Positions 24,001 through 30,000 of a stretch of DNA of 64,000 bases are shown piece by piece (position 1 is the first letter of the stretch; each line of letters opens with the position of its first letter). Source of the stretch: a bacterium (lineage in GTDB: Bacteria > UBA8248 > JACPRG01 > G963555815). The stretch covers positions 928,001-992,000 of the forward strand of contig CBDHDG010000007.1 in NCBI GenBank assembly GCA_965261595.1, read 5' to 3'. The position numbers are program-made.

Positions 24001-27000
24001 CGGGCTGCGCGAGAAGAACCTCCCCCTCGTGGTCGACAACCCGAGGTTCCTCATCCTGCCCTGGATCAAGATCCCCAACCTCGGTTCGCACATCCTCGCC
24101 ATCGTCCGCCGTCGCCTGCCCCAGGACTGGGCCGAGCGCTACAACACCACCCCCGTGCTCATCGAAACCTTCGTCGAGACCCCCCGTTACACCGGCGCCG
24201 TCTACAGGGCATCGGGATGGACCCACGTCGGAACCACCCAGGGACGCGGACGCTACGACAGGTACACGAGACGCGCCCAACCGAAAAAGGATATCTGGCT
24301 CCGCCCCCTCAAAAAAAATTGGAAACGAACCCTCAACAGCTAAATTACCCCCCCATCACGGCCCGTCCGAACGGTTACCGACAGGGACTCGCCGAGATGC
24401 GCAGGAGTTTTAACGAATCCGCTTTCATTTTGATTACGGACTGCAGAAGGCAGGTTCCGAATGAGATTGGAAATTATGTATATTCTCAATAATATCAATA
24501 GTATAATAGGATCTCACGGCTGGAAAGAACGGCTTTACGGCTGAATCAAGATGCAAAACGTCGTGAAGAAGGTCCGAAAGCGCAACCAGGAGGCGGTGGT
24601 CTCGGGCGCACAAAGGATCTACGAGGCCCACAGCCGCCGGGCGGCCATCGCCGCCTTTTGGCGATGTGCCAAGCAGTGGCGAGGGCGGGAGCCCAAGGCG
24701 GTGGCGTGCATCGAGAGCGACCTCGAGACGTTGTTGGCCCACTTCCAAGAGCCCCCCGCCCTTCGGGTCACCCTGCGCACGATAAACCCCATTGAGCGGG
24801 TCTTTCGGGAGGTGAGACGAAGAACCAGACCCATGACCGTCATGAACAACAACGAGTCCCTGGAACGCGTCGCCTACAGCGTGTTCCACCGCATTAACAC
24901 CTAGTGGGAGACAAACCCTCTCTGCACTTCTACACAAAACTCGTGACATTACCTTCGACAACCACGGATTTCACAGATGGGCGCGGATTCTTGCCACCCT
25001 CGATCATATCCGACCCCATCCATTTCCCGCACCGAACACCATGGCGGCGTAAGCCAAAAGCCAAGCATTCAGTATGGTGTCTCTGGAATCCCACAGGTTC
25101 CCTTGACGGGAAGCAAAAATTGTCTTATTGTCTGATCATCATTCAATATGGAAGAACCCCGCAATCCGGGGATCTTCTTTTTTCCGTGTGGGGGGATCGA
25201 GGGTCTTGAAATCTCTATCCGAGGAGTTGCGGGGCCGCATCGAAAAGGCCCGCCTGGGCGGCGGCCACGAGGCTGTCAAGCGGCAGCACGACCGCGGCAA
25301 GATGACCGCCCGAGAGCGCGTCGCTTTCCTCCTCGACGAGGGAAGCTTCACCGAGCTGGACGCCTTCACCGAGTCGCGCGCCACCGATTTCGGGATGGAT
25401 CGGCGCCGCACCCCCGGCGACGGGGTCGTGACAGGGTCCGGGCGGATCGACGGGAGCCTCGTCTACCTCTACTCGCAGGACTTCACCGCCCTGGGCGGGT
25501 CGCTGGGCGAGATGCACGCCGAGAAGATCTGCCGCGTCATGGACCTGGCGGTGAGCGCCGGGCGTCCCTTCATCCAGATAAACGACTCGGGCGGCGCCCG
25601 GATTCACGAGGGGGTCAGCTCCCTCAACGGTTACGGGAAAATCTTCCGGCGAAACACCCTCGCGTCGGGCGTCATCCCGCAAATCGCCGTCATCCTGGGG
25701 CCCTGCGCCGGGGGGGCGGTCTACTCGCCGGCCATCTGTGATTTTGTCTTCATGGTCCCGGGCGTCAGCCACATGTTCGTCACCGGCCCGGACGTGATCA
25801 AGACCGTCACGGGCGAAGACATCACCTTCGACGACCTGGGGGGCGCGGGGGTGCACGGCGGCGTAAGCGGCGTCGCCCACTTCATCCCGGCCAACGAAAA
25901 GGAATGCCTCCTGACGGTCAAGAAGCTTCTGAGCTTTTTGCCCTCGAACAACGCGGACGACCCCCCACGGAGCGAATCGCCCGATTTTCCGCCCCTGGAG
26001 AACGAGGCCCTGGACAACCTCATTCCCATTCGGCAGACGGAGCCTTACGACGTTCACGACCTGATCGATGGGGTCTTCGACCACGGCGACTTCCTCGAAG
26101 TGCAGCCGGATTTCGCCCGAAATGTCGTGGTGGGTTTCGCCCGCCTCGGCGGGTCACCGGTCGGCGTGATCGCCAACCAACCGGCGTTCCTGGCCGGCGT
26201 GATGGACATCGACTCCTCGGACAAGGTCGCCCGGATGGTCCGCCTGTGCGACAGCTTCAATCTGCCGGTCATCACATTCGTGGATGTCCCGGGATTCCTC
26301 CCCGGCGCCCAGCAGGAGTTCGGCGGGATCATCCGCCACGGGGCCAAGGTCCTGTTCGCCTATTCCGAGGCGACGGTTCCCAAAATCAGCCTCATCGTCC
26401 GCAAGGCGTACGGCGGGGCGTATATCGCCTTCGCGAACCGCGACATGGGGTTCGACCGGGTGCTGGCCTATCCGACGGCGGAGGTGGCCGTGATGGGGCC
26501 CGAGGGGGCGGCCAACGTCATTTTCCGGCGCGAGATCGCCGACGCCGAGGACTCGGAAGCCAAGCGGCAGGAGTTGATCGAGGATTTCCGCAAGAAGTTC
26601 TGCACGCCTTACTCGGCGGCCGCCCTGGGCTTCGTGGATTCGATCATCGAGCCGCGGCACACCCGCCGGGCGCTCATGAGCGCCCTGGAGATGCTCCAGG
26701 GAAAACGCGAGAGCCGCCCGCGGAAAAAACACGGGAATATCCCTTTGTGATCGGAGAAGAACCTTACCGGGGGGGACATCTCCGCCTTCGCGTGGGACAA
26801 GCTTTGAAAACCGTCCCCCCCCTGCCCCCCCCCCCGAAAGCTTTCTGCGGCCCGGTAAAACCGGGCCTTGATGGGGTTGGGTCTCGGGTCGGCTGAACGG
26901 TTTGTCTGTGGCCCGCCGATGGCGTCGGTCGTTGGCGGACACGGCATCCGGCGAATTTGCAAGTTTTTGTGATTGTGTAAAAAGCACACCACCGCCCAAC

Positions 27001-30000
27001 AACGGTAGGGCGGGCTTCCAGCCCGCCTTTTGATTTCAAATGGTGTGCGCCAACGAGGTTGCGATGAACACGAGAACCTCCATCCGCAGCCTGGCCGGCG
27101 CGCAAGCGCCCCGCAGGTTGGCCGTCGTGCAAGCGCCCCGAGCGCGGACATGATGAATCAGGGCCTGTTACTCGCCGTCATCGGGATGGGGACCGTTTTC
27201 CTCTCCCTGTTCGCGTTGGCCGTCCTGATCCGGTTGCTGAACTGGCTGGCCGCCCGGAGGGAGGAGAGCGGGAGAGATCGGGCGCCGGCGCCCGAGAGGG
27301 GGGGGGAGAGGGGGACGGGCGGCGCTCCGTCCGAAAACTCCGGCGGGGAGGATTTCCTCCCCATCGTCGCCGCTGCCGTGGGCGCGTATCTGGAGGCCCA
27401 GTCCGCACAAGTGTTCCTTATTCCCGTCGAGCGGCCCGACCAATCCCGGTGGGTGATGGATGGACGGAAGGACGCCCTTTCCAGGGCGGAGCCCTAGCGA
27501 CAGAGAAAAGGTCTTGAAAAAGTTCACGCTGACCCACAGGAACGTCACGTATGAAGTGACCGTAGAGGAGGCCGGCGGCCCGGACCAGCTTCGGGTTGTG
27601 GTCGACGGGGCGGAGCACTTGGTGGACGTCGTGGCCGAGGAGGCCGACGCGCCCGCCCCGGCGTCCCGCGCCCGTCGTCCCCGTTCCGGGCCCGTGGCCG
27701 GACAGGCCGGAGAGGTGACCTCCCCGCTTCCCGGAAACATCCTCAAGGTCCTTGTCAAAGAAGGGGACCCGGTCCAGGCCGACACGGTGGTCTGCATCCT
27801 GGAGGCCATGAAGATGGAGACCCAGGTTCAGGCGAACCAAGCCGGGGCGGTCGCCGAGGTGTTGGTCCGGCAGGGGGACAAGGTGGAGGGCGGCCAGACC
27901 CTCGTCCGCATCGAGCAGGACTGAATCCTTTAACCGTCAGGAGCGAAATGGTGGACGCTCTGGGGTCCGCTTTCTTTCAATTTCTGGGACAGACCGGGGT
28001 CGCGAACCTCACGTGGGGGCACGCCACGATGCTCGTTATCGGCGCGGTCCTGGTGTACCTGGCGATTCACAAGAGGTTCGAGCCCCTGCTCCTGCTGCCG
28101 ATCGGCATCGGGGCGATCCTGTCGAACCTTCCCCAGGGCGGGATGTTCGAGGAAGGGGGGCTGCTCTACTATTTCTATTTCGGCGTCAAGCTCGGGATCT
28201 TCCCACCCCTCATCTTCCTGGGCATCGGCGCCCTGACCGACTTCGGCCCGTTGCTGGCGAACCCCAAGACCATTCTTCTGGGCGCGGCCGCGCAGTTCGG
28301 GATCTTCGGGACCCTGTTGGGGGCCCTCGCCCTGGGGTTCAGCCTTCCGGAGGCGAGCTCCATCGGCATCATCGGAGGCGCGGACGGACCAACGGCCATT
28401 TACCTGACGGCGAAGCTGGCCCCGCATCTGCTGGGCCCGGTGGCGGTGGCGGCGTATTCCTACATGGCCCTGGTGCCGCTCATCCAGCCGCCCATCATGA
28501 AGGCCCTGACCACGGCCGAGGAGCGCAAAGTGGTCATGGTGCAGAGCAAACCGGTCTCGAAATCCGTCCGGATCCTGTTTCCCATCGTCTGTATCTTTTT
28601 TACGGGCCTTTTGTTGCCGTCGTCCGCTCCCCTGGTGGGGATGCTGATGCTGGGCAACCTGTTCCGGGAGTGCGGCGTCGTGGACCGTCTGTTGAAGACC
28701 TCGGAGAACGAGTTGTTGAACATCGTGACCATCCTCCTCGGCATGTCCGTCGGGGCGTCGATGTCCGCGGCGGCGTTCCTCAACCTTCAGACACTGTTCA
28801 TCCTCCTTCTGGGGTTCATCGCGTTTTCCATCGGCACGGCGACGGGCGTCTTGTTCGGAAAGATCATGGCGGCCTTCTCGAAAGACGCCATCAATCCGCT
28901 GATCGGCGCGGCGGGCGTCTCGGCCGTCCCCATGGCGGCGCGGGTCGTTCAGAAGGTCGGTCAGGAAGCGGACTCGAACAACTTCCTCCTCATGCACGCC
29001 ATGGGGCCGAACGTGGCCGGGGTCATCGGCTCGGTCATCGCGGCCGGGGTCCTGCTGTCGGTTGTGGGGCAAGGCTGAGGGCGGAAAGGGAGGTGCATTC
29101 ATGTCAGGCGCACTGGAAGGCATCCGCGTCCTGGACCTGACCCGGATCCTGGCCGGACCTTACGCCACGATGATGCTGGGGGACCTGGGGGCCGAGGTCA
29201 TCAAGGTCGAGATCCCCGGCAAAGGGGACGATACGCGCGGATGGGGTCCTCCCTTCGTCAACGGGGAGTCCTCCTATTTCATGAGCATCAACCGGAACAA
29301 GAAGAGCCTGACCCTCAACCTCAAAGACGAAAAAGGAAAGGCGATCCTCACGCGTCTCATCGAACGCTCCGACGTCGTGGCCGAGAACTTCCGGCCCGGG
29401 ACGATGGAGAAACTGGGGTTCGGATACGGCCGCGTCCGGGAGATCAACCCGCGGGCCGTCTTCGCCTCCATCTCGGGGTTCGGCCACACCGGGCCGCTGG
29501 CGGAGCGTCCGGGATACGACGTTGTGATTCAGGGAGAGGGCGGCGTCATGAGCCTGACCGGCGAGCCGGACGGGCCGCCGGCGAAGGTCGGGGCCTCGAT
29601 CGCCGACATCACGGCCGGCATGCTGGCCTGTCACGGCATCCTGGCGGCCCTTCTCGCCCGGGAGCGGACGGGGACCGGCCAAAAGGTGGACATCGGCATG
29701 CTGGACGGCCAGGTCGCCCTGCTGACGTACCAGGCGGGGATCTTCTTCTCGACCGGGGCGGCCCCCAAGCGGCTCGGCAACGCCCACCCCAGCATCACCC
29801 CGTACGAGACCTTCCGGTGCGCCGACGGGTTCATCAACCTCGGTGTGGGGAACGACTCGTTGTGGGTCAAATTCTGCGACGAGATCGAGCGGCCCGAATG
29901 GGCCCGCGATCCCCGGTACGAGAAGAACGCCGACCGGGTGAAGAACCATGATGAGGTGAAGGCCCTCCTGGATGAGATCCTCATCGCCCGGCCCCGGTCC

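Follow-up and report, generated by a model that had tools for sequence, protein, structure and literature searches.

Na+-translocating methylmalonyl-CoA decarboxylase (MmdADCB, EC 7.2.4.3) of Propionigenium modestum and Veillonella parvula is the described system closest to the operon analyzed here. It shares with this operon the four subunit families and the order carboxyltransferase, anchor, carrier and beta subunit; the Na+ residues of the beta subunit are conserved, and a mutase and an epimerase are present in the genome. However, the known enzymes are energy-conserving pumps of fermenting anaerobes, as described in the consulted part of PMC8085960, whereas the genome under study (G000; 96.7% complete, seven contigs), that of a marine-type bacterium, encodes a heme-copper oxidase and a TCA operon. 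It also differs by the lack of acetyl-CoA carboxylase, by added CoA-transferase and GntR genes and by a transferase that scores below the TIGR01117 cut-off.

Four other systems share part of these features. The transcarboxylase of Propionibacterium (EC 2.1.3.1) resembles this system in its homologous 12S-type transferase (1on3, 609 bits) and in ATP-free transfer via biotin, and an excerpt of PMC8085960 states that it forms malonyl-CoA from acetyl-CoA. Unlike it, G000 has a membrane beta subunit and no 5S (pyruvate/oxaloacetate) or OadA subunit (PF02436 absent from G000 and found in 0 of 6 family members), so that oxaloacetate cannot be the donor. The carboxyltransferase of Thermotoga maritima (1vrg) is the best PDB match and has Ile at the specificity site. 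This species carries fabD and OAD_beta without AccA or biotin carboxylase, the latter absence having been reported by the genome-wide survey's note and being found again in the control lists; according to these lists, an OadA-type protein is present and mutase missing, the opposite of G000. Missing acetyl-CoA carboxylase in Thermotogales and Spirochaetes was already noted in the available part of PMC3199775. AccB and PccB of S. coelicolor belong to the same transferase family, AccB I420 and PccB D422I matching the Ile of G000, but they need an ATP-dependent biotin carboxylase subunit that is absent here. The malonate decarboxylase Na+ pump of Malonomonas rubra also combines a biotin carrier, a beta-type pump and an acid-activating transferase. 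However, it uses an ACP-thioester and split transferases, and the G000 proteins score far below the cut-offs of its models (beta subunit, 163 versus a cut-off of 597 for TIGR03136; transferase, 86 versus 278 for TIGR03133).

Gene order and subunits of the operon

Profile searches place the intact MmdA-D-C-B genes of a Na+-pump decarboxylase at 25206-29078 of the window (the whole stretch of 64,000 nucleotides that was analyzed, whose coordinates are used throughout), where the survey had located them; they match Carboxyl_trans, OAD_gamma, Biotin_lipoyl and OAD_beta. The survey had limited the operon to these four genes (g05717-g05720). They are retained here as its core, but its extent has to be revised since caiB and gntR follow on:

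25206..26750, + strand: MmdA/PccB-type acyl-CoA carboxyltransferase, 514 aa (PF01039, 627 bits; TIGR01117 mmdA, 793 bits)
26751..27149, no strand: spacer of 399 bp with short repeats found genome-wide and a terminator-like hairpin at 27007-27029
27150..27497, + strand: membrane anchor subunit (MmdD/OadG type), 115 aa (PF04277, 41.6 bits; TIGR01195, E 3.9e-7)
27514..27924, + strand: biotin carboxyl carrier (MmdC type; PF00364; EAMKM motif with Lys100, by motif scan)
27948..29078, + strand: Na+-translocating carboxybiotin decarboxylase beta subunit (MmdB/OadB; TIGR01109, 527 bits, cut-off 190.6)
29101..30291, + strand: family III (CaiB/BaiF) CoA-transferase, 396 aa (PF02515), starting 22 bp after the beta gene
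30296..31006, + strand: GntR/FCD regulator (PF00392 and PF07729), 4 bp after caiB

The mmdA model TIGR01117 is the best match of the carboxyltransferase, yet its 793 bits remain under the cut-off of 998.8. The spacer has 36 blastn matches within the genome, and its counterpart is far shorter in most relatives. The carrier is the only biotin-carrier-type protein found in G000 (BCCP HMM, 112 bits); the other matches of this HMM reach at most 32 bits and are devoid of the EAMKM motif. In an alignment to 6iva, residues E45, D146, Y172, R247, N254, N316, G320, S325 and N355 of the beta subunit correspond to E40, D203, Y229, R304, N311, N373, G377, S382 and N412 of OadB, given as essential in the consulted part of PMC7274780; all nine Na+-binding and catalytic residues are thus kept. 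The PccB-type carboxyltransferase, carrier, anchor and OadB-type beta subunit lie clustered, and a mutase and an epimerase would provide (S)-methylmalonyl-CoA; on the best explanation, the four core genes are predicted to specify a functional Na+-translocating (methyl)malonyl-CoA decarboxylase. Fourteen runs from six studies contain at least 0.93 of the words of the stretch. Four RNA runs with small shares of it gave only contigs that were short and of low depth, many of them belonging to other organisms and with no DNA control, and therefore demonstrate neither expression nor co-transcription.

Missing carboxylases in the genome, the phylum and beyond

In the standard account, bacterial fatty-acid synthesis begins with a committed step that consumes ATP and is catalyzed by acetyl-CoA carboxylase. 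The reported lack of AccA/AccD and of any biotin carboxylase in G000 was borne out by profile, tblastn and six-frame HMM searches alike. Biotin_carb_C gave no match in G000 at E<=1, while the same search matches 13 of 14 control genomes, and E. coli AccC had no tblastn match in G000. The biotin-carboxylase HMM, applied to all 66,850 six-frame ORFs of the genome, yielded ATP-grasp matches that were all partial (best E 4.9e-5); the top four are Ddl, PurD and two proteins of amino-acid-ligase type. E. coli AccA, AccD and AccB each match this operon alone within G000, which, together with the BCCP HMM, confirms the claim that it holds the sole CoA-carboxyltransferase and biotin carrier of the genome. 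Neither the split AccA and AccD transferases of AccABCD nor the ATP-dependent biotin carboxylase of acyl-CoA carboxylases was found in G000. These searches show no other predicted biotin enzyme in this genome; bioABFD and birA are present, and biotin would be made and attached for the carrier of this one operon. As the survey had stated for the AMP-ligases, no malonyl-CoA synthase (MatB) is recognizable among the 14 of G000 (best 301 bits versus a cut-off of 558), nor among three of its relative G004, which were scanned as partial stretches.

The genome keeps intact plsX-fabH-fabD-fabG-acpP-fabF, fabZ and lpxABD, and its FabD retains the GHS motif; fabD occurs in 49 of the 51 phylum genomes. 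The type II fatty-acid and lipid A synthesis attributed to G000 by the survey is thus found again for fabHDGF-acpP and lpxABD but not for enoyl-ACP reductase, both candidates being under cut-off (FabK-like, 220 versus 453; FabL-like, 150 versus 328).

The counts previously given for the phylum were reproduced: AccA in 0 of 51 genomes, biotin carboxylase in 28 of 51 and in 0 of 7 members of the family, and the pump (OAD_beta) in 49 of 51. PF03255 does have matches in 49 of the 51 genomes, yet these stay at E values of at least 4.6e-15 and nearly always fall in carboxyltransferase frames of ~510-560 aa; such weak matches do not denote a true AccA. The 23 genomes devoid of biotin carboxylase include G003, G004, G022, G033 and G034, which are in one or two contigs; 21 of the 23 carry fabD and, among these, 17 also lack OadA. 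The survey had assigned the other biotin carboxylases mostly to very long frames or to the vicinity of a second carboxyltransferase. Among the genomes examined, 16 of 28 are indeed of pyruvate-carboxylase length and others lie beside an MCC-like transferase, but some stand apart. The phylum carboxyltransferases group in a single clade (SH-aLRT 100 for 18 rows in a quick tree). In 18 of 20 relatives, caiB adjoins the pump, and automatic ORF picking placed gntR behind it in 15 of 20; two streamlined relatives, G004 and G005 (95% complete), keep only the four core genes.

Outside the phylum, 37 genomes were picked by their related pump or transferase loci and are mostly incomplete MAGs of few lineages. 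Of the 27 among them whose fabD exceeds the cut-off, 21 have neither biotin carboxylase nor AccA; the pattern extends beyond this phylum. All 21 have a carboxyl donor (OadA-type only in 10, mutase only in seven, both in four). The 10 of them that lack mutase retain an MmdA without a methylmalonyl-CoA source.

Candidate sources of malonyl-CoA

By alignment, Ile407 of the carboxyltransferase occupies the specificity position D422 of S. coelicolor PccB; its second-best PDB match, 1xnw, has Ile at 422. The consulted part of PMC7835884 indicates that Ile at this site permits acetyl-CoA, AccB (I420) and PccB D422I both accepting it, and that the residue is important without being the sole determinant of specificity. 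All 20 phylum loci have I or V at this position, and all 12 PCC-type controls of halo/flavobacterial origin have D. However, the position is also I, L or V in 39 of 39 pump-type transferases outside the phylum, showing that Ile407 is a general pump-type trait and not an adaptation for malonyl-CoA synthesis; Phe291 excepted, the active site of the transferase showed no change specific to the phylum.

Three arguments make this complex the best-supported source: the elimination of other enzymes in G000, an Ile407 that permits acetyl-CoA and the gene pattern of the 21 outside genomes. Its carboxyltransferase probably produces malonyl-CoA with carboxybiotin as carboxyl source, the biotin being loaded by exchange with methylmalonyl-CoA or by Na+-driven reversal. 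The survey's proposal of the membrane decarboxylase is thus supported as to the source but not as to the direction, which is unreadable from gene content since every one of the 51 phylum genomes has methylmalonyl-CoA mutase, reversal being marginal besides. All reactions would share one carboxybiotin pool on the single carrier. Succinyl-CoA would be converted by mutase and epimerase into (S)-methylmalonyl-CoA, which would load biotin and release propionyl-CoA (G000 has both mutase halves, MeaB and the epimerase). The same carboxyltransferase would then pass the carboxyl to acetyl-CoA without ATP, yielding malonyl-CoA for FabD. Alternatively, the beta subunit would load biotin from CO2/bicarbonate, driven by inward Na+ flow; exchange and net reversal would be two limits of a single equilibrium network. 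Exchange, toward which we lean slightly, is a plausible candidate, while net reversal appears somewhat doubtful.

The title of Dimroth & Hilpert 1984 covers in vitro reversal of these pumps, including acetyl-CoA carboxylation. Reversal is no more than marginally feasible: under assumed constants, the net energy is -13 to +14 kJ/mol over the assumed range at 2 Na+/1 H+ and mostly positive at 1 Na+. No Rnf/Nqr-type, NhaA/B or Mrp system was found in G000, where only a membrane pyrophosphatase and one CPA2 antiporter turned up. Its ATP synthase c-subunit has the Q and ES..Y but a Leu in place of the Thr of the Na+ signature. Exchange needs a disposal of propionyl-CoA, which could be recycled in G000 through a methylcitrate-like cluster or by the operon CoA-transferase moving CoA to succinate. 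The absence of a methylcitrate route, considered because E. coli PrpD is unmatched, was overturned by a citrate synthase-PrpF-like-PrpB-like row and two MmgE/PrpD proteins, although the PrpF- and PrpB-like genes score under curated cut-offs. PrpF-family genes occur in 41 of 51 phylum genomes; among 14 loci fetched from relatives, seven have aconitase-like neighbors and none has citrate synthase or PrpB within 1.5 kb. G004 and G005 lack PrpF, PrpD and the operon CoA-transferase, which counts against exchange.

A far broader proposition, held tentatively and rather unlikely as it stands, is that the whole aerobic Gram-negative phylum would make all its malonyl-CoA without ATP or acetyl-CoA carboxylase through a Na+-pump decarboxylase that the sodium gradient drives in reverse. 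Supply without biotin carboxylase, by MmdA-type transferases that draw on Na+, oxaloacetate or methylmalonyl-CoA, would moreover be a widespread and so far unnoticed substitute for acetyl-CoA carboxylase in Bacillota, Synergistota, Cloacimonadota and Thermotogota. If MmdA-type transferases do supply malonyl-CoA, they would close the malonyl-CoA gap in many genome-scale models, give a physiological role to a reversal so far seen in vitro only and let metabolic engineers obtain malonyl-CoA without spending ATP. Such a role is testable with purified subunits and cultured strains sharing the deficit. Our literature search found no account of how lineages devoid of acetyl-CoA carboxylase obtain malonyl-CoA (additional file 2 of PMC3199775 may list such genomes). 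Nor did we find, in main texts without supplements, a paper proposing the Mmd pump as malonyl-CoA source, the matches of one query concerning nearly all animal acetyl-CoA carboxylase. A paper on Methanofastidiosa reportedly discusses malonate use and might already mention the idea.

It is unlikely that the pump is purely catabolic, converting succinyl-CoA into propionyl-CoA with Na+ export or serving a dicarboxylate pathway with HMG-CoA lyase, malonyl-CoA then coming from an unrecognized route independent of biotin, for instance by CoA-acylating oxidation of malonate semialdehyde, or lipids being largely scavenged. The universal mutase explains the retention of the pump without a biosynthetic role, gene content covering a decarboxylating role equally well, and it defeated our attempt to separate pump from mutase by their distribution in the phylum. 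Furthermore, the CoA-transferase, GntR and, in all 13 f4 genomes fetched, a flanking HMG-CoA-lyase gene make the operon resemble a regulated catabolic module, and other Na+ exporters are few. This reading would also fit with several long-chain acyl-CoA ligases, with the lack of an assignable enoyl-ACP reductase and with the missing CarB of G000 and G003, which indicates that auxotrophies exist in the lineage. However, FabH, FabD, FabF and ACP are conserved and intact, lipid A acyl chains require ACP-bound synthesis, and MmdA is kept in the 10 outside genomes without mutase. Nor did any candidate gene for a route without biotin emerge, although no search aimed at one was made.

Similarly improbable is malonate salvage, in which the family III CoA-transferase (or an unassigned ligase) would activate environmental malonate, FabD taking a share and the pump decarboxylating the rest for Na+ export. 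The survey had left open a ligase or a CoA-transferase; no MatB supports the former, while the conserved operon CoA-transferase, previously overlooked, is now a concrete candidate for the latter. It scores 386 bits with NF052585 (cut-off 750) and has Asp169, presumably the catalytic Asp of family III. Its closest solved relative is human succinyl-CoA:glutarate/HMG CoA-transferase (SUGCT; PDB 9br7, E 1e-107), which takes many dicarboxylates, malonate competing more weakly than succinate or glutarate according to the consulted part of bioRxiv 10.1101/2024.02.07.578422; the EC 2.8.3.13 entry includes malonyl-CoA as donor. The gene is also paired with the pump in Methanofastidiosa and Dethiosulfatibacter, but in most deficient outside genomes no CoA-transferase adjoins the pump. 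G004 and G005 have fabD and the pump with only a 54% paralogue of caiB, the operon has no malonate transporter, and malonate dependence of a whole phylum seems implausible. A MadM search matched neither G000 nor any control and so carries no weight either way.

Finally, a biotin carboxylase hidden in a gap between the seven contigs or too divergent for detection, for which the two partly ATP-grasp amino-acid-ligase-type proteins of unassigned function could be invoked, is largely refuted and very improbable, as the gene is missing throughout the family and from 23 phylum genomes, including the single-contig G003, G022 and G034, while the same search detects it at E<1e-30 in 28 relatives.

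Pump operon and fatty-acid genes of the source genome

The source genome (6.17 Mb in 7 contigs, 96.7% complete; the window is C7:928001-992000) carries four same-strand pump genes at the position that the genome-wide survey's note had assigned to them, followed by two further genes.

Pump operon and following genes (window coordinates)
25206-26750, same strand as the other pump genes: carboxyltransferase, 514 aa
27150-27497, same strand as the other pump genes: membrane anchor, 115 aa
27514-27924, same strand as the other pump genes: biotin carrier, 136 aa
27948-29078, same strand as the other pump genes: beta subunit, 376 aa
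29101-30291: family III CoA-transferase, 22 bp after the beta gene
30296-31006: GntR regulator, 4 bp after the CoA-transferase gene

The four pump genes encode an ordinary enzyme of the Mmd type. Since its beta subunit, aligned to 6iva, keeps all nine residues (9/9) that PMC7274780 gives as essential, the pump looks functional. In this genus, the transferase gene is set apart from the other operon genes by an interval (26751-27149) with short repeats that recur across the genome and a hairpin resembling a terminator; these possibly uncouple transferase expression from that of the other genes. An IS66-family transposase, a DruA-like (PF14236) ORF and then a Mutator transposase fragment lie directly upstream of the operon (21338-24343).

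The claim that this genome lacks biotin carboxylase was confirmed by three search routes: none was found by Pfam search (13 of 14 control genomes were positive), by tblastn with E. coli AccC and one relative's enzyme as queries, or with a biotin-carboxylase HMM over 66,850 six-frame ORFs, which gave partial matches only, the four best being Ddl, PurD and two amino-acid-ligase-type proteins. In the same genome, the E. coli AccA, AccD and AccB queries match the pump operon only, no OadA/5S protein was found, and no malonyl-CoA synthase was found among the 14 AMP-ligases (best score 301 bits vs a cut-off of 558). Genes are present for fatty-acid synthesis (plsX-fabH-fabD-fabG-acpP-fabF and fabZ), lipid A (lpxABD), biotin synthesis and attachment (bioABFD, birA), methylmalonyl-CoA conversion (both mutase halves, MeaB, epimerase) and central metabolism (TCA operon, pyruvate dehydrogenase, pyruvate:ferredoxin oxidoreductase, PEP carboxykinase, heme-copper oxidase). 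The enoyl-ACP reductase candidates, FabK-like (220 vs 453) and FabL-like (150 vs 328), are below cut-off and received no firm assignment. The anomaly, namely fatty-acid genes without acetyl-CoA carboxylase (ACC), is real and well supported. ACC absence has been recorded in Thermotogales and Spirochaetes (PMC3199775), the accessible portion of that paper giving no substitute route, and our literature search, restricted to papers outside subscription, retrieved none giving the pump a role in malonyl-CoA supply.

Distribution in the phylum and beyond

In the 51 phylum genomes, no true AccA was seen: ACCA family matches occur in 49 of them but are weak (best E 4.6e-15) and lie nearly always in full-length transferase frames. 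Biotin carboxylase is present in 28/51 genomes and in none of the seven family members, and the pump beta subunit in 49/51; fabD was found in 49 and the mutase in all 51. Sixteen of the 28 biotin carboxylases are of pyruvate-carboxylase length. The neighbourhood was inspected for six of the remaining 12: an MCC-like transferase adjoins three and lies 20 kb off in one, and for two the fetched stretch showed no transferase. Biotin carboxylase is lacking in 23 genomes; fabD is present in 21 of these, 17 of which are also devoid of OadA.

The operon was fetched from 20 of the 49 pump-bearing genomes. A CoA-transferase follows the beta gene in 18 and a GntR gene is present in 15. All 13 operons fetched from family f4 have an HMG-CoA-lyase gene ahead of the transferase gene. 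Two genomes of 2.1 Mb each (G004 and G005) have the four core pump genes only, with no orthologous CoA-transferase, HMG-CoA lyase, PrpF or PrpD found. In a quick tree, the 18 phylum carboxyltransferases that it contains group on one branch (SH-aLRT 100).

In many f4 genomes, 12-45 kb separate the fab cluster from the pump operon; in family f1 the two are unlinked. The pump operon adjoins the rpoA ribosomal cluster in families f2 and f4, and a gamma-carbonic-anhydrase-like gene is found near plsX in G043 (stretch L341, contig C32). Stand-alone OadA/PycB-type genes (450-510 aa) occur away from the pump operon in three genomes without biotin carboxylase, G011, G048 and G044 (stretches L339, L340 and L344 respectively); through their products, oxaloacetate might serve as carboxyl donor to the shared carrier. 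Frames of 3000-3500 aa with two acyltransferase-like matches each (G013, G014, G016-G018, G021, G025, G026 and G031) suggest that genus g8 has type I polyketide/fatty-acid synthases; G014 has one such frame yet no biotin carboxylase.

Thirty-seven genomes outside the phylum, including five archaea, came from two collection scans and one CoA-transferase scan and were chosen because they carry transferase and beta together (34), transferase only (2) or beta only (1). Biotin carboxylase is present in 7, AccA-type matches in 2, fabD above cut-off in 27, OadA-type genes in 28 and the mutase in 24. Of the 27 fabD genomes, 21 are without both biotin carboxylase and AccA, and their carboxyl donors are OadA only (10), mutase only (7), both (4) or neither (0). 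Most of these are incomplete MAGs of few lineages, and presence of the pump or of the transferase was the very criterion of selection, so that the counts describe a pattern and carry no statistical weight. On this pattern, the transferase seems to go together with a carboxyl donor. Five fab clusters from these 21 genomes look orderly where scanned, with no acc match among the genes scanned. Cultured strains that have fabD and no AccA include Thermotoga maritima, Anaerosalibacter bizertensis and Dethiosulfatibacter aminovorans; in the latter two, the sole biotin carboxylase is of pyruvate-carboxylase length.

A Ruminococcus MAG (G087) has a fab cluster (L390:5238-12310) of the order fabH-acp-fabK-fabD-fabG-fabF-fabZ-accD-accA, accB and accC not being among the ORFs picked. 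This genome, with OadA and the pump operon and without any biotin carboxylase match, is a possible intermediate in which AccAD would be fed from the shared carrier. In Methanofastidiosa archaea (L187, L191, L192), one row comprises transferase, anchor, carrier, beta, a second carrier, CoA-transferase and an RraA-like aldolase.

Possible sources of malonyl-CoA

The best solved relatives of the carboxyltransferase are T. maritima 1vrg, then S. coelicolor PccB (1xnw), whose Ile at position 422 corresponds to Ile407. According to PMC7835884, an Ile here gives acetyl-CoA access and an Asp restricts use to propionyl-CoA, the residue not being the sole specificity determinant. The equivalent residue is I or V in 20/20 phylum loci, I/L/V in 39/39 outside pump-linked transferases and D in 12/12 halo/flavobacterial controls. 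Ile407 would permit the proposed acetyl-CoA carboxylation; such a residue characterises the pump class in general and is no special adaptation.

Since the source genome has a single biotin carrier and a single CoA-transferring carboxyltransferase, the pump complex must be the origin of whatever malonyl-CoA is made with biotin; we propose it as the likely source. Acetyl-CoA carboxylation chemistry is already known in vitro; Dimroth and Hilpert reportedly described in 1984, to judge from their title, carboxylation of acetyl-CoA by a reversed decarboxylase pump.

Carboxybiotin could be loaded by exchange from methylmalonyl-CoA, a step that would be near-neutral by analogy and would require no Na+. 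The pump would then mainly export Na+ while acetyl-CoA draws on the carboxybiotin pool. Such export fits the few other Na+ systems of this genome, where Rnf/Nqr-type, NhaA/B and Mrp genes were not found; of such systems it shows only a membrane pyrophosphatase and a single CPA2 antiporter. Against exchange, G004 and G005 are without evident propionyl-CoA recycling except by a reversed pump. We hold this route as plausible but tentative, and slightly favour it over net reversal.

Alternatively, CO2 would load carboxybiotin through the beta subunit, driven by inward Na+. For Campylobacterota and Vibrio natriegens, others have proposed that the oxaloacetate pump runs backwards in vivo. With assumed constants, we estimate the net value for reversal at -13 to +3 kJ/mol (standard free energy 18-21 kJ/mol; 2 Na+ entering for each H+ leaving), at up to +14 kJ/mol for a standard free energy of 31.5 kJ/mol, and as mostly positive with one Na+; PMC8085960 lists -37 +/- 12 kJ/mol for methylmalonyl-CoA decarboxylation. 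Therefore, Na+-driven reversal is possible but marginal, and net reversal as the route to malonyl-CoA is somewhat less probable than exchange.

Malonate salvage by the operon's CoA-transferase would also supply malonyl-CoA. Human SUGCT, the closest solved relative of this CoA-transferase, shows weaker binding of malonate than of succinate or glutarate (bioRxiv 10.1101/2024.02.07.578422). The gene is dispensable in G004 and G005. We consider salvage unlikely. We give an equally low chance to a purely catabolic pump, with malonyl-CoA obtained by an unknown non-biotin route or by scavenging; in the 10 mutase-free genomes among the 21 outside ones with fabD and neither biotin carboxylase nor AccA, the pattern suggests that the transferase has no obvious job besides malonyl-CoA formation. 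That the missing biotin carboxylase is an assembly artefact is very improbable; the biotin-carboxylase-free G003, G022 and G034 are single-contig assemblies.

Other features of the genome and the window

The membrane pyrophosphatase motif (stretches L166 and L170) is GNTTAA in the source genome, which we take to indicate a K+-dependent, possibly Na+-pumping enzyme, and GNTTKA in G004, presumably K+-independent and H+-pumping. CarB (carbamoyl-phosphate synthetase large subunit) was not found in the source genome or in G003 (14/14 controls positive); it is present in G004, G022 and G034. The source genome has pyrF, argB and argH. Behind its sole citrate synthase gene (C5:631004-634460; closest models PRK09569/eukaryote-type) come a PrpF-like and a methylisocitrate-lyase-like gene, none of them reaching a curated cut-off. 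A cluster on C2 (284478-291351) encodes GntR, acyl-CoA dehydrogenase, CoA-transferase, amidohydrolase, crotonase and HMG-CoA lyase; no methylcrotonyl-CoA carboxylase was found in the genome.

In the window, type I restriction-modification genes (142-8879) have hsdM and hsdR in two frames each, and hsdS is separated from hsdR by an inserted 300-aa ORF of no assigned family and a Cap15-domain gene. A UbiD decarboxylase and an NMT1-type binding protein have on either side a near-duplicated short ORF that precedes a gene resembling OsmC (31262-31552 and 34615-35236); the OsmC likeness is an impression, this gene having no Pfam match. Further on, a Rieske oxygenase, a two-piece thiamine-dependent decarboxylase and an MmgE/PrpD-family gene form a row (48060-51866), and two convergent di-heme cytochrome c genes, followed by phage portal and prohead protease remnants, occupy 57316-59365 and 60909-63115.
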